From the IMG/VR virus record IMGVR_UViG_3300028591_000092, positions 107,662-171,661 of that record: a stretch of DNA of 64,000 nucleotides, one strand, 5' to 3'. This stretch comes from a virus. Its lineage: Duplodnaviria > Heunggongvirae > Uroviricota > Caudoviricetes. The notes beneath the pieces were generated by a model that was given only the letters and a program-made list of their open reading frames with translations, was not told the DNA's origin and ran no database searches. Shown one piece after another: positions 2,619 through 57,659 of this stretch; the stretch's first letter is position 1, and each line of letters begins with the position of its first letter. Position numbers and translations under genes: made by a program.

Positions 2619-4778
2619 CTATGCCAGCTCAATTTGATTACGCTCTTTAACCAACTCAAGTTCTTTCTCTTTAGCCTCAGCCTTAGACTTAACATCATAC
2701 CACTTAATAGATTGCTCTGCAGTATTATTCTGTTGCTCGATAGCAAGTTTCTTCTCATTAAGTTGCTGAAGTTTCTTAGTATTAGCTTCAAGCTGTTGTT
2801 GCATTTTCTTGGCCTGATCTTGAGCCTGCTCTAATTGTTGAGTAAGTTGAGCAATTTGATTATTCTCAAGCTTCTTCTGCTTAATAGTCTTTCTAAGAGC
2901 TTCTTTCATTTCTGTCAAGCTCTTGCTTGTAGTAACATCAATAAGAATTTCAGGATCAACTTGATTGTTCTTAGCTAATTCAAGAGCCATTTGTTTAAGT
3001 AATTCCTGCTCTTTCATTATCTCTGTAGAATCAGCAAGATGTACATCATAATCAGTCTATGAATAGTATTCAGGCAAAGCTGTAAAGATTTCTTTTCTGT
3101 TGCCTAAAATTATTTGCCCTGTAAGACCTTTCTTATAAACTTTTCTTGCCAAATTTAATGCATCAGTAAGCATTTCTGCAACAAGAGTATCCATTACTTG
3201 ATAATATTGTTTAGTAATGATATAAGACTATTGCATTCCTGCTTCAACATTTGCCACAGCATCTCTCTGCTGAATACCGCCGAGTCTTTCTCTAAATACA
3301 CCAGTAATAGAGCTTGCTGTAGTTTCAACCATTTCAAGAGCTATTTGTACCGCCTATAAAGCACCGGGCTCAATCATGTCGTTATAACCATTAAATACTT
3401 GATTAATAACATCTCCTTCTTGAGAAGAATCAAATAAAGCCAAGCCAGATTTTCTATAAGCAAGATATTTCATAAGACGCTCTTCCATTTTATCTCCCAA
3501 CATTTCTGGAAGATGCGCTAAATCAACAATAGCACCTTTTGTACCGGAAAGAGCAATCATATTACTTTTAAAGTAATTTAAAAGATCAAAGTCGTCCTAT
3601 AATGAAGCTGTTTTTAGCATTAATGAATAAGGAGCGCCATGTCCATCGGTATAATACATTCCATTAATAGACAAAGTAACTTCATTAGGAGAATCCATGT
3701 CTCTAACAACATTATCGTCTTCGCCATCTAATATGTAAATATCAGATCCAATTCTAGTTACCTTATATCTTTGACCTTTTCTTTTCTTTCCGTCTTTGAT
3801 CCAATCAATCCATTCTACTTCGTAAACAGGAATTAAATCCCATTTACCATAGCGATTGTCGCTGTCAAACGTAACTCCAACACCATCAACAATACCAGGA
3901 TTGCTATAATCTCCATATCTAGCTCCACATGAAGTTATAAGAACATAATTTCTATTATCTTCATCATATACTTTAAGGTCGTCTAACTCATCAATATCTT
4001 TTTGAGTAAGATCATCTCCATATTTCATGATAATTTCTTCTTTAGTCATCCATTTTCTTACAACAGCTTTATATCCGTTTTTAAGATACTAGCTTTTAGG
4101 GTCTTTATCTACCCATGTATTTAAAGGATCTTCAATTTCAATTTGAAAATTCGTTCCAGCAGATGTTGGTATAACTTTATAATAAGCTTCTCCAGCGATT
4201 AATAGATCTAGTAAAATCTATTTTAATTTATTTTTAAAGTCAATTTTTCTTGATTGCAAAATATACTAAACTATGTTCTATCCAGCAATCTCGTAATTAG
4301 ATAGGAAGTTAATATCAACGGACTCCATTAAATCTTTAATCTCCTAATCTATAACAGGATCAATTGTTTTCTCTTCGCCAGGCTTTTTCCCAGCAAGAGC
4401 ATCATAGACGGCATTTGTGAGATATCTAGACACCCACTCTCTAATCTTAGAAGCTTTTTCAAGCTAGATATCCCTAAAAATGTTGGTTAGAGTTTTTTCA
4501 TCTTTACATGAAATCTTTGGTCTGATCTCTGTTGTTAAGAATTCACCAACAATTGCGTCTATGTGTTTTCTAATCAATGGAGTAAAGGAAATTGAAGTAG
4601 GATTTCCTATTCCATAATTTTTTTCAATATGTTCGTATTGATATTTATCTCTGATGGCATTATAATAATTATAAGCTTTAAACAGCCCTTCTTTTTCATG
4701 AACTAAATCGCCTATAACATAATCAGCCATCTCTACAAGATAATCGTCAGAACCTTTTTTACTTTTAGAAATTTCCAT
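2619..4778 (-). CDS. large structural protein, putative portal. One reading frame with at least 5 in-frame TAG codons; C-terminal coiled coil.
   Basis: ORFs 2619..3017, 3354..3560, 3597..4049 and 4464..4778 are all in the same frame. In-frame cta (TAG) at 3057, 3228, 3354, 3597 and 4089. Lies immediately downstream of terL in transcription order. Confidence 0.45.
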
Positions 4779-17409: not shown

Positions 17410-17426
17410 ATTAAAAATATATTATT

Positions 17427-17504
17427 GGTTGCCCTCCAAGGATTCCAACCTTGCTCCCCTGATTTAGAGTCAGGTATAATCAATTGCAAATATACGAGAG
17501 GGCA
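17427..17504 (-). tRNA. amber suppressor tRNA (anticodon CTA, reads UAG); amino-acid identity not determinable by eye
   Basis: Reverse complement TGCCCTCTCGTATATTTGCAATTGATTATACCTGACTCTAAATCAGGGGAGCAAGGTTGGAATCCTTGGAGGGCAACC. 7-bp acceptor TGCCCTC/GAGGGCA; anticodon stem CCTGA/TCAGG with loop CTCTAAA (U33, CUA, A37); T-arm CAAGG-TTGGAAT-CCTTG. Confidence 0.7.
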
Positions 17505-23777: not shown

Positions 23778-24299
23778 ATGACGTGCCGTTTTAATAATGT
23801 GGTATCGTGTATTAATTTGTCAACACAGATGGCTCTCGTGAGCCTGATTACTGATGGCTTTATGCTCACCACGAGGAAATATCATGGCTGGGTAATTGAG
23901 GGCCCAGATGGGCAGGTTGTTAAACTGTCAAAAGGTCTTAGCCTATGGGCAGACGTGTTTAGGACTTGGAAGCCAGAAGTGTTGAGAGATCGGATAAAGC
24001 TCCGTCTTCGCGGGGCCGAGACACAACTGTGGTTCAGGGGATCGGACCAAATTCCTACTGGCCTTCCAGAAGTGAAGGTAATTAAAAGTAGTCCAACCTG
24101 GCTACAGCATCTAGCAGGGGCAGACTGCTCACTGCCGGCCCCAAAAGAGGGGCAAAGAATAATCTTTGGCACCCTCATATATGAGAGGTGTCTTCTCGTC
24201 GGTGGGGACACCGACAGATGGAAACTTATCGAGTTTCCGTCAGAGACTTTAGCCCGCATATGTTGTGGGGAAGTTGATAACTCGACCGAGCGAGTATAA
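23778..24299 (+). CDS. hypothetical protein in GC-rich island (antisense ORFs 23882..24328 and 23453..23713 are probably artefacts)
   Basis: 173-aa ORF; ~50% GC against a ~30% background. Confidence 0.4.
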   Translation: MTCRFNNVVSCINLSTQMALVSLITDGFMLTTRKYHGWVIEGPDGQVVKLSKGLSLWADVFRTWKPEVLRDRIKLRLRGAETQLWFRGSDQIPTGLPEVKVIKSSPTWLQHLAGADCSLPAPKEGQRIIFGTLIYERCLLVGGDTDRWKLIEFPSETLARICCGEVDNSTERV

Positions 24300-24394
24300 A
24301 TAGACTTTAGGCTCGGTGCGTTGCCCAATCAGAAATGGTTGGGCAGGTAGTATTAACTAAAGTGCGTTAAGGAGCGCACGTTAAACAATAAAAA

Positions 24395-27950: not shown

Positions 27951-28130
27951 GGTCCTATCATCTAGCGGGATCACCCCAATAGCTCTAGTACTAGCCCGTA
28001 AGAGGTTTGCTCTAAGCCGTTATAGCTTTATGGTGCAAAGTATAAGCCGGAAGAAGGAAACAGTGAGGGAGTGGTCAAAGGATAAATACTTCTCAAGTAT
28101 GAAACAGAGGTTCGAATCCTCTTGGGACTA
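27951..28130 (+). tRNA. tRNA-Glu(CTC)-like gene with a ~110-nt insertion in the D-loop
   Basis: Acceptor GGTCCTA/TGGGACT (G1-U72, U6-G67), D-stem ATCT/GGAT, anticodon arm AATAC-TTCTCAA-GTATG, T-arm AGAGG-TTCGAAT-CCTCT, discriminator A, no CCA. Upstream terminator AGGCAATTTATTATTGCCTTTTT. Confidence 0.5.
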
Positions 28131-28241
28131 CAAAGCATGCTTGTGAGCATGTGGTGTTATTCATAATGTGTATATTTTTTCCCCAAGAAAGTGCTATATC
28201 TTTCTTTAAGAGAGTGCGTTGTAAAATGTGCTCTCTTTTTT

Positions 28242-28442
28242 GGTCTTATCGTCTAGCGGTGATAATTGCGGCGAATCTGATACTACCAAGGCATGAGATA
28301 TTTCTATTATAGAATATAGGTTGCCAGAAGTAGGGATACTGGGTCCCGAAGACGCGTTCGGTGTGCACCTGGAACACTCACAGTTATCTTAGGACAATTA
28401 CTTCTCAAGTAAAAAACGTTGGTTCGAATCCAGCTGAGACTA
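28242..28442 (+). tRNA. tRNA-Glu(CTC)-like gene with a ~140-nt D-loop insertion (paralog of 27951..28130)
   Basis: GGTCTTA/TGAGACT acceptor with compensatory C5-T/G68-A change relative to the paralog; D-stem GTCT/GGAC; loop TTCTCAA; T-arm GTTGG-TTCGAAT-CCAGC. Confidence 0.5.
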
Positions 28443-28550
28443 CAAAGGAAGCGCTCGCTTCGTTCATGATAATAGATTAAGTTGGTTTATACAATTCCTT
28501 AATAAGGCCGCTTGGGAAAGTAGCCTTATTTTTTTCTAAAGAAACTCATT

Positions 28551-30471: not shown

Positions 30472-30479
30472 GTATAATA

Positions 30480-31860
30480 ACCTAACGTTTGGAAGTTCGG
30501 ACATAAAACTTCAAAGAGGCGACGGTACAGACTTAGCTATTTGTTAAGTAGTCTCATAGACTGGTGATGAACTATTCCAGTCACTCTTTTCTCAATAACC
30601 GAAAGTGGGGGTCCTAAACATAAGTAGCGCTAAAATTATGAACAGGAGTATATAATGAAATACACGGAGAAAAGATTTTATTTTACTGCATAATAGTTCC
30701 GTAAGGACAAATCAGAGAGATACTACGTGCAGGTAATGGCTCTGATTTTTTTAATAGTGTTATTACTCCACTTAATAGAGTAATTAAAGTCCAATTCGGT
30801 CATAAGGACCACGAGAGATGATTGTCTAGGCTCTCACTTTTGACGGATGGAAAGACATCTAAGTTTAGTATTTTGAAAACAAAAGTACTCAGAATAATAC
30901 TCTGTGAAAGTATTTTTTTAAAATCAGAACGAATTGCAATAAGTTCTGATGGAGAGGTTGCAAACTCTCATGGATATGTAGTATAAAGGAGTACTCTGCT
31001 GGGCTAGTGGTTATAAATGCTGTACAAGCTACCAGACTACTCGGCGGCGGCGTAGGTTAGAATCCTACCATATCTTCTAAAATCCATCAAATGACACGAT
31101 GGTTGACTCCTATCAATAGAGTAGGTACAGGCTGTTATTAGAAGCCACACGTCCTCCCGTGAGTGTGAGGTGTCCCAAAGTTATTCTTTTACTGGCACAA
31201 AAGTTTTAGTCAAGAACAAAAAAAGACAATTTTGAGCATAGTCGTCTGATCAGGACTATGCCTTCTATCTAGAGTGATTCTCTAAGGTTGATTACCAATC
31301 ATCTGACACTTTAAAAGTAAGCCAATAGGGGAAACTTTGTCAAAGTTTTAATAGTTTACTGACGTAAGATCTCATCAATCGAAAACTATTTGTTAGTAAA
31401 TATGGTAGCTATTGAGTCGCTCTTAATAGTAGAGGTTCGATTCCTCTTTTACTTCTAAATCCAATTCTCACAATTGGTAGCAGGCTGTAATAGAAGCCAA
31501 GTTTATCACTATAATGCATAAAGTGACATCAAAGAGTTAGATGTAAAATAGGACTGGTCAACTCAAAAAAGATCTTGGGCATAATTGCTTGGTTGTAATT
31601 ATGCTTTCTAATTAGAAAATTTCTTAAAACTATGTACATAAGTTTAACATATCTATTGGGTTGGTTGTTGACTTAGTTTTAAGAGATACTTAAAAATCCA
31701 TTCTATGATACCATGTTTTCGTAGAATAAGTAAGTGACATGGCACAATGCAGTTTGGTGGATTCTGCTTATTTTAGATAATATAATATTGCCATATACAA
31801 CTTTGATAACCAATCAATTTTATATCTTCCCCTCCTAGAATCCGCTAGGAGGGGATAACC
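30480..31860 (+). ncRNA. ~1.4-kb ORF-free structured region with duplicated ~80-100-nt units (31055-31155 and 31425-31505), each holding a T-arm-like hairpin and a GGTA(G)CAGGCTGT.ATAGAAGCCA motif; group-I-like AAGTCCAATTC at 30787
   Basis: No ORF of 60 aa or more on either strand. GTAGGTTAGAATCCTAC and GAGGTTCGATTCCTC hairpins. AAGTCCAATTC is shared with the tRNA-Leu intron at 43985. Confidence 0.35.
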
Positions 31861-31868
31861 TAGGTATT

Positions 31869-32252
31869 ATGAAAGAAACAAAACATTATTTTGAAGTGGG
31901 AGGATTAAAAGTTTTTTGGAACTTTTGGCTATTACCTTCTAATTTTATTGCTATAACATTTTTTGGTTGTGTTTTGAGTAATTTAAAGTATGAAAATTTA
32001 AAGAAATATTTAGAGTCATATAAAGGATATGTTATGATTAATCATGAAAGAATCCATATGTTGCAAGCGAATTCTTTTATATTAGGTTATTTCACTTTTT
32101 ATATTTTATATCTTTGGTATTGGATAAAAGAATTATTTAAATATAGATTTAATAATAATCTTTCTTATTATAATATTCCTTTTGAAAAAGAAGCTTTTGA
32201 TAAAGAACTAGATTTTAAATATAGTTCTTCCAAATGGAAAAAATATATTTAA
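31869..32252 (+). CDS. membrane protein with HExxH-like motif (HERIH)
   Basis: ORF track; hydrophobic segments; HERIHMLQ. Confidence 0.45.
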   Translation: MKETKHYFEVGGLKVFWNFWLLPSNFIAITFFGCVLSNLKYENLKKYLESYKGYVMINHERIHMLQANSFILGYFTFYILYLWYWIKELFKYRFNNNLSYYNIPFEKEAFDKELDFKYSSSKWKKYI

Positions 32253-32904
32253 TTTTATTTTAATTTTTATTTACATAAATCAATCGACTACATTGACGAT
32301 GGATTTCTCATAGGAGATTAAATTCGGACAATTCAGTTGGGATTGCCTAAGTGGAATTTAATAATTGTCTATTAGAAAAACTCGTAGCTTTACCACCAAG
32401 TGTTGTTTTTTATTTATACTGGGCTGCTATTTAGCGTTATTCGAAAGCACAGATTGATTTATGTAACAGTTTTTATTATTTTGTACTGTAAACAAAATGA
32501 CGAAATTTATTACACCGATAGACAGTATATATAAGCTGCGTAATTGAGTTTGCTAGTTTCTAAAACAGTAAGTCGCCTAGCGCGTGTAAAACTAGAATCT
32601 TTTTACCTTTCACAAAGTAAGAAGTGTCCCGAATCATAGGGGTGAAAAGGGGTTTGTAATTAGCCTTAATAAAAAGATGAGTTGTGTGAGGTTACGCCGT
32701 CGTTAAAAAAGTAAATAACGAGACGGGGTTGGTAGAAGCTCTTCTGGATGATTACTATGCATTCATCGCACTTTGAATGTAAAGAAGAGGATATTAGTAT
32801 TCTAGTCATATTAAATTTAGATACATACTCTTACTAGAGGAGGATTGTGTTATGTATCTTTTATGCCGGGATAACTCTCGCCTAGTCAGCGGGCCTGGCT
32901 CCAA

Positions 32905-33870
32905 TAGTTGAAGGAAAACAACTTTAAATAAACCCAGTGAAGGTAAACACGTTAAAACCCGTAGTCTGCATCGTAGCAGAATTCATGTCCATGAAGCTTA
33001 TAGGACTAGGGTTTAGCAATTTACCGAAATAAAATTGCATTTTACTATAGTTGAAGGAAAACAACTTAAAAAACCCGTTGAAAGTTCAGCATACTAGTTT
33101 TGAGAACTTTACAAAGAACGATCGGTATAGAGGTTCCAAGAGAGTTGACAGGTAGTACAAGACTCTCAAATTTATAGTTGAAGGGAAACAACTTTAAAAA
33201 CCAAATTGAAATTGTAAATTAGAGAACTATATGCATTCTGGGTAAACCGCTAGGTCAGTGAACGTCTAATTTGCATCTTGCAAGATTTCAATTTTTATTT
33301 GAAGATACCGAGGATGAGTTGCAGATATGCAATCGGTGGAGGTTCACGATGATATTAGAGGTAATGCTCCGTAATCGGAATAATGTGAATGTAGGTATTA
33401 AAATTAGTTGAATGCAACAACTTTAAAAACATGCTACCGAGGCAAAAAGAGGGGAAGGTCCCAATTATCAATGACGTCCACGATAAAAGGGGGATTCGAA
33501 TGAAGATTCTAGAATTGATTTCGTTTCGTAGGTAGCATTCTATAGTTGAAGGAAAACAACTCTAATAAACCCTTGGCAGTGCGGATGTGACAAGTAAACT
33601 AACATTTATCCGCTCCTCGGGTTTTCGTAAGCTTTTGTCCATAAAAATGCTTACTGCGATCTAACACTGCAGAATTGTTAGAAGGAAGATAACACTGGGT
33701 TTATCCGTTTTGTAAGTGTGCGATAGATAACTTACTATGTTTAGATAAATTCATAGTCAAAAATTGTCCGTGTTTTAGTAATTTACCGTGAGGAATAAAG
33801 AACCGAAATTGCATTTTACTACAGTTGAAGGAAAACAACTTTGATAAAACCGTTGATGGAAAACAACTAA
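32905..33870 (+). repeat. array of 6 copies of a hairpin repeat (T)AGTTGAAGGAAAACAACTTTAAAAAACC separated by 130-280 nt unique segments
   Basis: Copies near 32905, 33044, 33174, 33405, 33540 and 33822. Inverted repeat AGTTG..CAACT. Two copies share a longer ATTGCATTTTACTA prefix. Confidence 0.6.
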
Positions 33871-34007
33871 GAAAACCCTTTCTTATAGTTATGAAGTAGT
33901 AGCTATACACGGCAGGCAGTGCTTCCGCCTTAATTTCTCACTTAATCTTAAAGTGATGGCTGATAGGAAAGACTATCAATTTTTATGTTTAATATAAATA
34001 ATATATT

Positions 34008-34862
34008 ATGTTTAAAAATAATTGTTGTGACGGAATTTATCATTCTTACGATGTTCATTTTACATCTGTATGTGATAATAAATGTTCATTTTGTATTGAT
34101 AAAAAATATCAAGGCATAAACTGTAAAAAGCCAAATCCTAATGCTATTGCAAAAACTATTATTGACAATAGTGAAGGTTTTGATGATGTACTTTTTCTTG
34201 GAGGAGAACCATGTTTGTTCCTTGAAGAGTTGATTGAATGTATTGCATTAATCAAAGGGCAAACTAATTTGAAATGTTATATAACAACATCAATGCCAAA
34301 AACATGTTATGACAAAAAAGAATTATTCTTTGAATTAATTAACATGTGTGATGGTATTAATATTTCAGCACAGCATTATAATCAAGATATTGCAGATAAA
34401 ATTCGTGCAACAAAATCTAAATATGATAGAATGGCATTTTATAAATCTTTACCTTATAAAGAAAAATTCAGAATTAATTTAAATATTAATAAACCATATC
34501 TTTATAAGAAAGAAGATTTAATAGAATGTCTAAAATTTTTCGATGATCTTGGTTTTCCTGAGATTAAACTTTCAGAAATTCAGCATGGATCAGAATATTT
34601 TGTTTCATTTGAATCAATTTTTAATATTAAAATGAAATCACCTTATTCTAGCGGATGTCAAACATGGGTTGATATGAAACCGTGGATTCCGGATTTCAAA
34701 GGAAAACTTCTACTTAAAAGAAGTTGTTTTCTTTGTGAAAGTACACTTAAAGCAAGTTTCATGGATGGAGTAAAAGCATTATATAGACAATTTTCAAGAC
34801 CAGATGTAAAATATGGTGTTATTTATGAAAATGGAATGCTTTCTAAAAAAGGATGGATTTAA
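34008..34862 (+). CDS. radical SAM enzyme
   Basis: CDNKCSFC (CxxxCxxC) near the N-terminus and a GGEP SAM-binding motif. Confidence 0.8.
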   Translation: MFKNNCCDGIYHSYDVHFTSVCDNKCSFCIDKKYQGINCKKPNPNAIAKTIIDNSEGFDDVLFLGGEPCLFLEELIECIALIKGQTNLKCYITTSMPKTCYDKKELFFELINMCDGINISAQHYNQDIADKIRATKSKYDRMAFYKSLPYKEKFRINLNINKPYLYKKEDLIECLKFFDDLGFPEIKLSEIQHGSEYFVSFESIFNIKMKSPYSSGCQTWVDMKPWIPDFKGKLLLKRSCFLCESTLKASFMDGVKALYRQFSRPDVKYGVIYENGMLSKKGWI

Positions 34863-35168
34863 ATATGTGGACTAAGTTTGTAATTGCATTGATAAATAAA
34901 AAATTAAGATTCTTTGGTCATTGTGGTGGTTTTGGACATTGTTATTAAAATTACTTTAGTGATTTAAAGATTATCAATTTTTTGTAATCCGAGGTAGAAA
35001 GTAATATATTGTTACTGTAATAGGAAATTGTAGTAATACAAGATGGTTAGGGATACAAAAATCCTTTAATAAAAGGACAATGTATCATTAGGAAAGAGGT
35101 TGGGAATTGCGCAACCGTGTAGGATTACATTTTATATTGTGTAGTATAGTATACTTATAATTATTTTT

Positions 35169-35252
35169 AGCGGGATGTTAGAAGTTGGTCATCTAGCTGG
35201 TCTCATAATCCAGTGCCCTTGTGCCTCGTGAGTTCGAGTCTCACTCCCGCCA
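35169..35252 (+). tRNA. tRNA-Met(CAT)-like with an expanded (~14-nt) variable region and an A1-C72 mismatch
   Basis: Acceptor AGCGGGA/TCCCGCC, loop CTCATAA, T-arm GTGAG-TTCGAGT-CTCAC. Confidence 0.5.
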
Positions 35253-35271
35253 CTAAACAAATTAATTAACA

Positions 35272-35784
35272 ATGACATCAGAACTTTCGAAAGCTTTACT
35301 GAAATTAGCAACTGATTACACTCCTGCTCTTACAACTGAGTCGGATTATTATACAATTGGTTGCATTAAAGTAAGGTTTTCTGATCACATGTCAAATGAA
35401 ATGGACTGTGATCTAGCCGTCTTTTGTAACGGTAAATCAACTTATTGTTTAATTCCTTATATAGGAACTTGGAAAGAAGTAAGATGGTTTACTTCTATCA
35501 AAGAAATAATAAGTTATATTACTAACTTTGAGTATTTTGCTAGGACTTTTGTTAAATCATTCACACCGATTCATAGGGAAGTTACTCCTCAAATGATTAC
35601 GGAAGTAGAATGGGAAAAGAAATTTAAAGTGTATTATAACTCTAAAATTCTTTCTCCTTATTTTCCTAAATTATTCCAACTTTATAAAGATGGAAAGATA
35701 ACGATGAGGGAAATGGGCGAAATGTCTAGTATGTCAAAAAAAAAGCAAGTCGCAAAGTACAAACAATTACTTGGGGAGAATTAA
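35272..35784 (+). CDS. hypothetical protein
   Basis: ORF track. Confidence 0.5.
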   Translation: MTSELSKALLKLATDYTPALTTESDYYTIGCIKVRFSDHMSNEMDCDLAVFCNGKSTYCLIPYIGTWKEVRWFTSIKEIISYITNFEYFARTFVKSFTPIHREVTPQMITEVEWEKKFKVYYNSKILSPYFPKLFQLYKDGKITMREMGEMSSMSKKKQVAKYKQLLGEN

Positions 35785-36014
35785 TCTCTCCAAGTAATTT
35801 TCTTGATGTCATAAAATTTTGAAATTATGAATAACATAATTAAAGATGCTATACAAGAAGGATGGGATGATTATTATTCCAATTCTTCCACAGTTTATTT
35901 AACTGAAGAACCTTTTGAAGAAGGTTGGAAAGAAGGATATGAATGGATTCTTATAGAATTGTCTATTCGCGGATATATCTCCGATGAAATTGTTGAACAT
36001 TATATGAATGTATT

Positions 36015-36455
36015 ATGTGTTTGATTGTAAAACGTCCGGTAAAAATACAAACAGCTAAGGAAAATATGGTTGTTTATAAACTTGTAGAAGAACATAAGAG
36101 TTATTTAAATACAGGTCTTACAAGTTTATATGGTCCATTTCAATGGATTAAATATGGAATAGTAAAATGTCTTCCATTTAGTATAAGAGAAGATGATAAA
36201 TTTCATATTACGCCTTGTTGTTTTTATTTTAATACAGATATGATTACAGGGGGAGGATTTCATACTTTTAAAAATCTTCTTGATGCTGTAGCCTGTAATA
36301 AAACAATGTTCTCCCAATATACAATTTATAAATGTATTATTCCGAAAGGAATTCAATATATTGAAGGAATATTTATTCAACGTGGTACAAAAAGAATAGA
36401 AGAATATTCATCTTATGTTTCAAAAGAGTTAAGATTTGAAGAAAAATGTGTTTGA
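36015..36455 (+). CDS. hypothetical protein, paralog of 36446..36790 (both start MCLI.KR.V)
   Basis: ORF track; shared N-terminus and FHTFKNL/FFAFDNF region. Confidence 0.5.
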   Translation: MCLIVKRPVKIQTAKENMVVYKLVEEHKSYLNTGLTSLYGPFQWIKYGIVKCLPFSIREDDKFHITPCCFYFNTDMITGGGFHTFKNLLDAVACNKTMFSQYTIYKCIIPKGIQYIEGIFIQRGTKRIEEYSSYVSKELRFEEKCV

Positions 36456-36790
36456 TTGATAAAAGAATAGTTAGGTATGCAGATCATAATATACCTATTT
36501 TTAAAGTAGCTATTAAAAAAGGTGATAAATATTACAGTCCTTATCAAAATGATAATAGATTGTGGAGAGTAAATACTACAGATTTTACTATTTATCAATC
36601 TATATGTGTACAAGGATGTACTTTATTTGCTAAAGGATATTTCTTTGCTTTTGATAATTTTGGAGATGCTTTAAGTAGAGCAAGTTATAATCCTGACTTA
36701 GTAATATTAAAGGGATATATTCCAGAAGGAACTCGATTTGCTTACGAAAATGGAGAGATTTGTTCTCATAAAATGATTTTAAATATTTAA
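36446..36790 (+). CDS. hypothetical protein, paralog of 36015..36455
   Basis: ORF track. Confidence 0.5.
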   Translation: MCLIDKRIVRYADHNIPIFKVAIKKGDKYYSPYQNDNRLWRVNTTDFTIYQSICVQGCTLFAKGYFFAFDNFGDALSRASYNPDLVILKGYIPEGTRFAYENGEICSHKMILNI

Positions 36791-46524: not shown

Positions 46525-46596
46525 ACAGTGATTAGCTCAATTGGTAGAGTACAAAATTTGGTTTTTGAAGTAGTAGGTTCGATTCCTACATTATTG
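46525..46596 (+). tRNA. tRNA with a 6-nt anticodon loop TTTGGT (anticodon ambiguous: TTG or TGG)
   Basis: Acceptor CAGTGAT/ATTATTG, D-arm GCTC-AATTGGTA-GAGT, anticodon stem CAAAA/TTTTG, T-arm GTAGG-TTCGATT-CCTAC. Confidence 0.45.
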
Positions 46597-46634
46597 TAAC
46601 AAAATTTTCTTTATTACTTTCTTTATGTCTTTAT

Positions 46635-57227: not shown

Positions 57228-57659
57228 ATGATCACATATCAAGAATTAACATTATGTTATGTTCCTTCTACTGCAAAATTAGCATATAGTATATTTAAAC
57301 CCACAAAAGAAGTGGATTTTAATAAAGTTATTGCTGATTTTGAAAAATCAAATACAAAGTGTTTTATAGCACTTGATAATGAAAAAGTAGTTGGATTAAT
57401 AACACTAAATATTTTTAAACCATTATTTACTGATTTTCCTAAGGCTCATATTTCTTGGATTGCTGTAGATGAAGCGTACAGGCAAAAAGGAATAGCAAAA
57501 ATTCTTATGCAAATGGCAGAAGAATTTTGTAAGCATAAGAAATGTAAATATATGGATTTATCTTCAAGAAATGTTCCAGAAAGAATGGCTGCACATGCCT
57601 TATATGATTCTTTTGGATTTAAAAGTGATACACAGAAATATTTTATTAAACATTTTTAA
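57228..57659 (+). CDS. GNAT family N-acetyltransferase
   Basis: Motif A-like WIAVDEAYRQKGIAKILM. Confidence 0.7.
   Translation: MITYQELTLCYVPSTAKLAYSIFKPTKEVDFNKVIADFEKSNTKCFIALDNEKVVGLITLNIFKPLFTDFPKAHISWIAVDEAYRQKGIAKILMQMAEEFCKHKKCKYMDLSSRNVPERMAAHALYDSFGFKSDTQKYFIKHF

Follow-up and report, generated by a model that had tools for sequence, protein, structure and literature searches.

What does a hairpin repeat do when it recurs, at irregular intervals, through a stretch of phage DNA that holds almost no genes? The question arises in a 64,000-nt stretch (the window) that covers positions 107,662 to 171,661 of the IMG/VR virus record IMGVR_UViG_3300028591_000092, a member of the Caudoviricetes. 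An original prediction made from the sequence alone had pointed out six hairpin repeats just upstream of a radical SAM enzyme gene and had offered several meanings for them: promoters or terminators of a small RNA (sRNA) cluster, processing sites of a polycistronic non-coding RNA (ncRNA), or leaders of very short precursor peptides. Our computational follow-up leads to a model that we hold somewhat likelier to be right than wrong, in which small RNA genes are lined up along the region and every one of them begins with a portable 5′ leader.

The repeat reads (T)ATA-GTTG-AAGGAAAA-CAAC-TTTAAAAACC and is present in six well-conserved and two degenerate copies, all on the + strand within 32253-34007, an interval flanked by a small open reading frame (ORF) at 31869-32252 and by the radical SAM gene. 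The copies are 28–30 nt long, are 77–100% identical, and start 143, 127, 230, 138, 279, and 28 nt apart. A search with the 28-mer allowing up to three mismatches gave five matches in the window and none in 100 shuffles, while the 16-nt hairpin core GTTGAAGGAAAACAAC, with up to one mismatch, was matched six times, always on the + strand and always inside 32907-33867; one extra match to the core, with three mismatches, lies at a distance on the − strand at 57256 (chance expectation 0.95). The AGTTG/CAACT inverted repeat of the original prediction was recovered as GTTG/CAAC in the copies, and all six of its sites are real, although the one at 33405 is degenerate and two further copies (1b and 7 in Table 1) had been missed.

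In line with the prediction of an ORF-free stretch, no + strand frame reaches 60 aa with the standard code, and the only frame of that length lies on the − strand (69 aa, GTG start, 33701-33910). If TAG, TGA, or TAA is taken as a sense codon, there is still no + strand ORF of 80 aa or more in the same interval, and the read-through frames that do appear across the array are nearly all on the − strand. A role as intrinsic terminators, another of the proposed meanings, does not hold: a scan for stems with at least three G-C pairs found no terminator-like site in 31700-35400, the motif stem is followed by TTTAAAAA without a T-run, and the motif stands at the 5′ side of conserved modules.

Arrays of the same kind were found in related phages, whose loci we designate by L numbers. 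The exact 16-mer is repeated in the IMG/VR loci L024, L032, L048, and L055, a metagenome scan with a 19-mer returned 32 loci, the densest of which (L096, L107) hold 12 copies within 4 kb, and more than 150 further copies emerged in about 40 other loci when the leader was used as a search handle. The array-bearing contigs measure 120–498 kb and carry their arrays in tRNA-rich non-coding DNA. All copies in any one locus are co-oriented, and every one of the 182 tRNAs called by ARAGORN in those loci is on the motif strand. The repeat, whose loss from relatives would have spoken against the original prediction, is thus kept there in arrays, with the megaphage consensus (T/A)ATA-GTTG-AAGGA(A/C)A(A/TA)-CAAC-TT(T/A)AA(A/T)AAACC.

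The sequences between the repeats, which we call cargos, differ from copy to copy and recur between contigs in another order, with breakpoints at the motif. Positions 33078-33173 of the window are 97% identical to a unit found in L092 and L106 and 85% identical to a unit of L108. The start of cargo 3 matches unit L092_7210, which in L092 precedes the homolog of cargo 2 and in the window follows it; the other window cargos have partial homologs or none among the loci compared. Because cargos recur between contigs in different order, we read the array as a series of shuffled leader-plus-cargo modules.

Comparison of the cargos themselves identifies them as RNAs rather than peptides. For one newly defined family, family A, nhmmer recovered 27 different members of full length from the related loci; its layout is leader, AAACCC GUUG, a variable helix, ACAAAG, a covarying helix, and CCA GAGAG(U/A)UGA ... 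CUAGACUCUC AAAUUU. Conserved single-stranded joints alternate in it with helices of variable length, the consensus fold shows compensatory changes in two helices, and its indels do not keep to steps of three nucleotides. Some of the remaining cargos are tRNAs or resemble them and begin 6–12 nt after the CC of the leader (L024 228-296; L032; L096 3420; L107 782; L112 3018; L113 1480), a small minority amounting to 5 of 162 copies by ARAGORN. A further cargo, at 3202-3289 (+) of L096, matched positions 2127-2214 of the Rfam model for bacterial 23S (large-subunit, LSU) rRNA with 60.1 bits (E = 4.6e-15), a match that did not reappear in an E-value-mode re-run on L096 2900-3600, whose filters probably differ. 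These positions we take to be roughly those of the L1 stalk, and the cargo is probably a phage-encoded copy or mimic of that fragment of 23S rRNA. An sRNA cluster or polycistronic ncRNA is accordingly the one of the proposed meanings that fits, the spacers being conserved, apparently structured non-coding modules that lie on the tRNA strand and are shuffled in relatives.

The genome around the array is treated here as part of a Lak-related, TAG-recoded megaphage of the gut or rumen. The window is A+T-rich and holds 20 tRNAs by ARAGORN and a few more by Rfam only; among them is a CTA-anticodon (amber suppressor) tRNA at 17426-17504, on the − strand and opposite to all other window tRNAs. With read-through of TAG, ORF coverage rises from 0.67 to 0.83, a sign that part of the genome may be TAG-recoded. 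The only GenBank phages similar to 32250-35300 are Prevotella Lak megaphages (72–74% identity over 131 nt, inside the radical SAM gene), and contigs that share the motif reach 318, 381, and 498 kb. The assignment draws on all of these features, and the host, Prevotella or another of the Bacteroidetes, is named by analogy only. In L024, ORFs with in-frame TAG (2060-2860 and 3940-4500), such as a GIY-YIG-like gene between tRNAs, are consistent with TAG recoding in this phage group.

The same hairpin also heads messenger RNAs, and most of the single hits in IMG/VR turned out to be other than accidental. In about 35 IMG/VR contigs of 20–180 kb, the 16-mer, or an identical loop on another stem, stands in an mRNA-leader arrangement of the order TGnTATAAT, about 10 nt, (4-bp stem)-AAGGAAAA-(stem), 2–3 nt, AAACC-AGAAAGG, 7–9 nt, ATG. 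A −10-like box is present in 98 of 103 distinct mRNA leaders and is TG-extended in 72 of those; it ends 9–13 nt before the hairpin in 77 leaders (mode 10), and the ATG lies 14–17 nt after the CC, so that the hairpin is likely a few nucleotides from the transcript start. L129 is a contig of 84 kb that is A+T-rich and carries tRNAs. A textbook promoter of Bacteroidetes type (TTG-N20-TATCTTTG) stops 13 nt short of ATA-GTTG there, and on the reverse strand of this contig (~150-205 and 590-650) a 30-nt promoter repeat, TTG-N20-TATCTTTGCAGTG(C/T)GAAAATA, precedes a leader-headed RNA and a tRNA-Leu. Promoter geometry therefore places the structure within a few nucleotides of the 5′ end in the 98 mRNA leaders and in L129. 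The latter contig is binned as “Tenericutes” and resembles phage DNA.

The genes behind these leaders are of early type and include DEDD-like exonucleases and small acidic or winged-helix-like proteins. About 100 such genes, each with its own TGnTATAAT promoter and leader, lie in L022 (6408-11532), L070 (6472-14589), L066, L075, and about 30 other IMG/VR loci. Since the nearest cultured relatives of one mRNA-leader phage are large Enterococcus myophages and another such contig is binned with a Bacillota metagenome-assembled genome, we assign the mRNA-leader contigs to Firmicutes-type phages that use the standard code. A scan of 185,579 genomes of bacteria and archaea found next to no motif, its real instances there being confined to phage-like contigs, and comparison of the window with the mRNA-leader phages revealed no RNA-binding or RNA-related protein in common. 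A nucleoside 2-deoxyribosyltransferase family protein (PF05014; 50799-51290, +) is the only one that they share.

To examine the stem we gathered instances by loop and AAACC tail alone, with no pairing required. Among 30 distinct stems, 19 are paired along their full four positions, and all 19 differ in sequence. Paired stem cells make up 87.5% of the total, where shuffles give 51.5%, and two-sided changes affect 43 cells, where shuffles give 13.6, values that none of 500 shuffles reached in either case; slid registers are only 27–53% paired. The stem variants of megaphages (GTTG/CAGC, GTTG/TAAC, ATTG/CAAT, TAAG/CTTA, and CAAG/CTTG) likewise keep their pairing on the + strand, some via G-U. 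The strong covariation of the 4-bp stem in mRNA leaders points to an RNA-level element at transcript 5′ ends.

This covariation bears directly on the first of two main rivals, in which each repeat is a DNA-level promoter, read by a phage-specific RNA polymerase or sigma factor or serving as a variant host −7 box, and each small RNA gene is its own unit starting near the CC. A recognition site in duplex DNA would not tolerate stems that covary around a constant loop, and a hairpin with only 4 bp and a loop of 8 nt lacks the strength to be extruded from DNA. The layout of the arrays does suit promoters, with one copy per module always 5′ of the cargo, tRNA cargos that start after a typical tRNA leader length of 6–12 nt, and a hairpin-plus-T-run at the end of family A modules and of the last window module that would call for re-initiation. 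In Bacteroides promoters the −7 box has the consensus TAnnTTTG, from which TATAGTTG departs by one mismatch. However, the first T of the putative box varies (T, A, or G), no −33 TTG is suitably spaced from it, TAnnTTTG occurs in the window about as often as expected (55 times, expectation 51.6), and the TAAG/CTTA and CAAG/CTTG variants lose the TTG while they keep the pairing. The distance from hairpin to CC varies as well (5–11 nt). Although 5 of the 103 mRNA-type leaders have no −10 box upstream, a conventional promoter just upstream in the other 98 and in L129 puts the motif within the transcript. Promoter-like sites number 18, against 19.4 in shuffles, the promoter types considered at the copies being sigma-70 (TTGACA-N17-TATAAT) and Bacteroidetes (TTG-N19-21-TAnnTTTG). 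The repeated promoters of the original prediction are thus disfavored at the DNA level, and we consider them unlikely.

The hairpin alone is weak (−3.5 kcal/mol, z = −1.2) and so would need further contacts, tertiary or with a partner. Conservation is highest in its loop and in the distant CC, and the linker from stem to CC is A-rich and variable, with 5–6 nt in the mRNA type and 8–11 nt in the megaphage type; such variability suits a loop that crosses a helix groove better than a protein or polymerase site at fixed distance. Loop and tail also vary together. GG loops accompany a CC tail in 71 of 95 distinct copies, 10 of 11 single-G loops come with a single C or none, and one variant, copy 4 of the window (GTTG-AATGCAA-CAAC-TTTAAAAAC), has AUG in the loop and CAU in the tail in place of the usual GG and CC. 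From the weak hairpin, the conserved loop and CC, the variable A-rich linker, and the GG/CC association we infer a miniature H-type pseudoknot, with GUUG/CAAC as helix 1, GG/CC as helix 2, and an A-rich third loop.

In the model that we favor, 32241-33990 would be a bank of small ncRNA genes in the tRNA island of the megaphage, and each repeat would be an RNA leader of about 30 nt directly 5′ of a different structured RNA cargo. The leader would comprise the 4-bp hairpin with its purine loop, the A-rich linker, and the CC, with the loop GG most likely paired to the downstream CC. Array and co-oriented tRNAs probably share a transcript, in which the leader would give every module a defined, self-contained 5′ structure. 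We propose that it is a protective 5′-end and punctuation element that would need no phage-specific protein, because early mRNAs of unrelated phages, whose hosts belong to another phylum, have the same module at their very 5′ end. It may shield the 5′ end from 5′-end-dependent decay, as 5′ stem-loops and polypurine stabilizers do, and may also punctuate and insulate neighboring structured RNAs within a long tRNA-island transcript. Action through universal host machinery, or by the leader itself, is the simplest account of an element that occurs once per RNA at the 5′ side (at the primary 5′ end wherever a promoter can be recognized), on mRNAs and ncRNAs, in phages of two host phyla, that is nearly missing from bacterial and archaeal genomes, and that comes with no shared phage protein. 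To the specific stabilizer role we would extend perhaps half of the confidence that we place in the leader model as a whole.

The second main rival takes the repeat for a site at which an endonuclease would divide a polycistronic precursor into unit RNAs, comparable to CRISPR repeats, ToxI repeats, or RNase E/Y sites beside a hairpin, with the hairpin left on either product. Most array copies have no recognizable promoter of their own, all tRNAs are co-oriented, a conserved ATA lies directly 5′ of the stem and an A/U-rich single-stranded tail 3′ of it, and some mRNA-type copies are internal, behind another hairpin (L054 5765, L077 2294), all of which would accord with cutting. Yet no candidate nuclease gene is linked or shared, Rfam finds no self-cleaving ribozyme in the arrays, and cleavage would serve no evident purpose in mRNA leaders, in which the motif already occupies the primary 5′ end. 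Processing is compatible with the leader model and not exclusive of it; as the explanation of the repeat it seems to us about as improbable as a promoter.

Several points weigh against the leader model itself. Cargos folded as single sequences give modest z-scores (−0.04 to −1.8). The megaphage stem is almost invariant (GTTG/CAAC), the covariation coming mostly from Firmicutes-type phages, and a common function in both groups is argued from the exact shared 16-mer and the AAACC tail. The second helix has just 2 bp that hardly vary, and the GG/CC association could reflect joint decay of degenerate copies. Array transcription, 5′ ends, and processing are all deduced from the DNA sequence, and a Prevotella or Bacteroidetes host solely from distant similarity to Lak phages. 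RNase P would strip the leader from tRNA cargos, so that 5′ protection would not apply to the mature tRNA. Finally, with TATAGTTG one base away from the Bacteroidetes −7 box, the megaphage copies may have a promoter role.

The invariant AAGGA of the loop raises another alternative, in which the leader is a tag or decoy for a factor that reads a GGA hairpin loop, either a CsrA-like regulator, with the RNAs as targets or as a CsrB/RsmZ-type sponge, or the 30S anti-Shine-Dalgarno. CsrA targets have one GGA in a hairpin loop and another in the Shine-Dalgarno sequence, and CsrB/RsmZ sponges contain many GGA hairpins. The mRNA leaders do have a second GGA, in the AGAAAGG Shine-Dalgarno about 12–13 nt 3′ of the hairpin, and arrays supply up to 12 such loops, but the invariant CC and the A-rich linker are left unexplained, the copies are 100–350 nt apart, unlike those in clustered sponge RNAs, and no host genome uses the motif. 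A tblastn search of 815 kb of phage DNA found no CsrA homolog, and Bacteroidetes are not known to carry one. We regard a GGA tag as quite unlikely.

Less likely again are RNA anti-CRISPR-like mimics of the Cas13b direct repeat, to which we give very little credence. Cas13b direct repeats start with GUUG and end with CAAC, that of Prevotella buccae ends in ...GAAAGGUAAAAACAAC, and the presumed host genus carries Cas13b; the GTTG...CAAC ends and the GAAGG-AAAACAAC core of the motif resemble such a repeat. The motif, however, has 16 nt and not 36, its stem is free to vary in Firmicutes-type phages, and it is fused to conserved cargos and to Shine-Dalgarno sequences. The bacterial-genome scan revealed no CRISPR array with the hairpin-plus-tail, by a pattern that would miss a full-length Cas13b repeat. 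Among other candidates, an rrn-type boxB-boxA leader was rejected: boxA has a GCUCUUUAACAA-like consensus, and CUUUAAAAAC resembles its 3′ part in some copies, but the CUUU is not conserved (UUA, UCU, UAU, UGA) and mRNA-type leaders have no CUUUAAAAAC-like boxA. Conserved positions, spacing, or covariation also spoke, case by case, against a mimic of the tRNA D-arm, a mini-substrate of RNase P, attC-like sites of integrons, repeats of ToxI type, and a palindromic operator for a dimer.

Ranked below the GGA tag and the Cas13b mimic, in this order, come short precursor peptides matured by the radical SAM enzyme, as for ribosomally synthesized and post-translationally modified peptides (RiPPs), and a CRISPR-like array. 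The peptide reading of the original prediction drew on the adjacent radical SAM gene, and that gene is real: the protein matches PF04055 and Fer4_12, and its translation contains CDNKCSFC and GGEP, in agreement with the predicted CxxxCxxC and GGEP. Yet no SPASM or maturase family scored above its cut-off (best NCBIfam match 39 bits versus 129.7), and the suggested classification among SPASM, QueE, and NrdG ended at the generic PF04055/Fer4_12 assignment, with no curated family at cut-off. Nor is the linkage conserved in seven homologous loci, since five IMG/VR homologs (59–63% identity) have neither motif nor tRNA within 6 kb and the motif was not found within 12 kb of the Lak-A1 and Lak-C1 copies. 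The adjacency, which has no conserved link to the array behind it, looks incidental; a terminator-like hairpin followed by AATTTTT (GATAG-GAAAGA-CTATC AATTTTT, 33962-33984) closes the last module 24 nt before the radical SAM ATG; this hairpin was missed by our terminator scan, whose rule demands at least three G-C pairs. ORFs of at least 15 aa 3′ of the eight copies, read in the standard code or with TAG as Gln, have no common start, frame, or sequence, so that the search for small peptides (15–59 aa) that had been suggested yields only the translated repeat itself, which stops after 7–34 codons. No common small ORF, no SPASM match, and no conserved linkage leave little of a RiPP-like precursor array.

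For a CRISPR array one could cite regular repeats with unique sequence between them, and at 28–30 nt and 77–100% identity the repeats do have the form of near-identical direct repeats of 23–50 nt. The intervening sequences, in contrast, are variable at about 12–250 nt instead of a uniform 25–50, are conserved between genomes, where they recur as modules in other contigs, and are structured where testable (family A, to which cargo 2 belongs). No Cas-like Pfam or PHROG match was found among the neighboring ORFs scanned (31869-32252, 34008-34862, 35272-36790). Peptide precursors and CRISPR together are the least probable of all the readings that we weighed, and we attach almost no weight to them.

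How does the proposed leader compare to elements already described? Rfam 15, run on the window, the related arrays, and the mRNA-type leaders with gathering and permissive thresholds, gave no match to the motif at threshold; its matches overall were tRNAs, one Pistol ribozyme elsewhere in the window, the LSU fragment in L096, and sub-threshold look-alikes. Neither motif nor mRNA-type leader was found in GenBank phages, published Lak genomes included, and a literature search by sequence and on Lak ncRNAs, phage tRNA-island RNAs, and exonuclease-resistant phage RNAs found no description of the motif. The closest counterparts of the array come from phage tRNA clusters. Species 1 and 2 of phage T4 are stable small RNAs within its tRNA gene cluster, for which, to our knowledge, no such leader or modular shuffling has been described. 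Lak megaphages are reported to have “large, highly expressed intergenic regions” (PMC6784885). Like these, the cargos would be structured ncRNAs of unassigned role among co-oriented phage tRNA genes, presumably co-transcribed and processed; here, in contrast, there are 7–12 modules per array, from many unrelated families, each with one common 30-nt leader, and the published Lak genomes lack the motif. A large catalog of predicted viral RNA structures (PMC10690425) could hold the motif under an anonymous identifier.

As a 5′ leader the element recalls GP20-b (RF03003) and DUF805 (RF03081), small phage or bacterial 5′-UTR (untranslated region) elements with a 4-bp hairpin, an 8–10-nt loop, and a UAAAAAA tail. 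Their possible loop-tail complementarity is GC:GC in the GP20-b consensus and CC:GG in the DUF805 consensus, compared to GG:CC here. The loop sequences differ, however, and both are single cis-regulatory elements before particular genes rather than leaders of arrayed RNA genes; GP20-b matched only degenerate copy 1b, as a weak look-alike (17.8 bits, cut-off 36.2, E = 0.7-4.9), and DUF805 reached 17.5 bits against a cut-off of 51.1. Known 5′ stem-loops and polypurine 5′ stabilizers include the ompA leader, the SP82/SPO1-type early RNA stabilizer, and the cryIIIA STAB-SD (reviewed in PMC3997798). The mRNA-type leaders share with them a structure or Shine-Dalgarno-like purine tract a few nucleotides from the likely 5′ end and the occurrence on early mRNAs of large Firmicutes phages, and our leader, too, would act independently of any phage protein. 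The known stabilizers, however, have no conserved loop-plus-CC signature and are not known to cross host phyla or to head ncRNA arrays, and stabilization here is putative.

The predicted fold would resemble compact H-type pseudoknots such as the preQ1-I aptamer and luteovirus frameshift elements, which combine a short helix 1, a 2-nt loop 1, a short helix 2, and an A-rich loop 3 of 5–9 nt, although helix 2 has only 2 bp here. In those pseudoknots the A-rich loop lies in the minor groove of helix 1. A preQ1-I riboswitch was rejected, with no Rfam match at E up to 10 and with AAAA, ACAA, or ACAUA as the loop segment that corresponds to the one in which preQ1-I keeps its ligand-contacting C, and a riboswitch or frameshift role is implausible for up to 12 copies ahead of RNA genes. 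CRISPR and type III toxin-antitoxin RNAs likewise have direct repeats with a small hairpin or pseudoknot that punctuate a non-coding transcript, but the repeats here are non-tandem, are separated by long, structured, conserved RNA genes instead of 25–50-nt spacers, and have no linked cas or toxin gene among the neighboring ORFs scanned. The ingredients are of known kinds: sRNAs encoded in tRNA clusters of phages, structured 5′ leaders, and mini-pseudoknots. New, as far as we know, are the arrayed, modular use of one leader and its sharing across phyla.

One megaphage “intergenic” region thereby acquires a proposed anatomy, in which one 30-nt leader marks off a row of individual small-RNA genes, and with it come one new structured RNA family, an uncatalogued 5′ leader of early mRNAs in Firmicutes-type phages, and, in one relative, a cargo copied from part of ribosomal RNA, probably the L1 stalk. 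If the leader is a self-sufficient 5′ stabilizer or tag, it would provide a compact RNA-expression tool for Bacteroidetes and Firmicutes and open a way to ask what megaphage ncRNAs do. A bolder version, which we rate as doubtful, is that a portable, protein-independent mini-pseudoknot acts as a “cap-like” 5′ guard or identity tag exchanged between phages of different host phyla, and that megaphages express a shuffled library of mimics of the translation machinery. Such a library, of tRNA-like RNAs, the probable L1-stalk copy, and new structured families, might perhaps supply decoys against RNA-targeting host defenses or retune the host ribosome.

Table 1. Positions of the proposed leaders, cargos, and neighboring features in 32241-34862 of the window.
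Feature	Position	Strand	Basis or remark
Conserved ~165-nt non-coding element without leader; opens the ORF-free region	32241..32404	+	No ORF; 77–80% identical blocks in relatives
Leader copy 1, TA-GTTG-AAGGAAAA-CAAC-TTTAAATAAACCC	32905..32935	+	Motif match
Degenerate tandem leader copy 1b, AGTG-AAGGTAAA-CACG-TTAAAACCC, 3-bp stem	32936..32960	+	Read from sequence
Cargo 1; no homolog among loci compared	32961..33047	+	3′ end AAATTGCATTTTACTA recurs at end of cargo 5
Leader copy 2	33048..33076	+	Motif match
Leader 2 plus cargo 2, family A structured RNA member	33047..33175	+	nhmmer, 83 bits
Leader copy 3, loop AAGGGAAA	33175..33203	+	Motif match
Cargo 3	33204..33404	+	Start AAATTGAAATTG matches unit L092_7210; 33305-33401 96% identical to L096 2245-2341
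Degenerate leader copy 4, TA-GTTG-AATGCAA-CAAC-TTTAAAAACAT	33405..33432	+	Read from sequence
Cargo 4; no homolog among loci compared	33433..33542	+	Sequence comparison
Leader copy 5	33543..33571	+	Motif match
Cargo 5, mosaic	33572..33821	+	33573-33617 98% identical to L118; 33747-33818 matches L100, L118
Leader copy 6	33822..33850	+	Motif match
Leader copy 7, tandem with copy 6; loop ATGGAAAA, tail TAAGAAAACCC	33852..33878	+	Starts 28 nt after 33824
Cargo 7	33879..33990	+	33932-33985 recurs in L109, L114, L121
Radical SAM gene; neighbor, outside the element	34008..34862	+	PF04055, Fer4_12

The leaderless element that opens the region has its homologous blocks in L024 (1247-1371), L048 (1440-1605), L097, L098, L108, and L119; in the at least six related contigs that contain it, it is usually placed after a family A unit. 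Further 5′, an ORF-poor stretch of about 1.4 kb (30472-31868) has a G+C content above that of coding DNA and holds tRNA-like pieces and no leader copy. One of the structures in this part of the window is a 105-nt tRNA match at 30972-31076 (+), with 39 bits, that ARAGORN missed and that possibly contains an intron; tRNA matches of 140–190 nt were also seen in related loci (L048 6388-6578, L097 4259-4450, L109 1856-2014).

Other RNA features are scattered over the window. A full-length Pistol self-cleaving ribozyme (RF02679, 68.2 bits, cut-off 34.5) lies at 24280-24352 (+) and overlaps the end of the ORF at 23778-24299. Two paralogous 71-nt tRNA-like elements at 28070-28140 and 28382-28452 (+), 76% identical and with a GGTTCGAATCC T-arm, score 24–27 bits, just under the tRNA cut-off, and escape ARAGORN; another piece with a T-arm-like sequence, the third, is at 31394-31455. 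At 46525-46598 (+), ARAGORN reports a tRNA with a two-base “anticodon” (tg).

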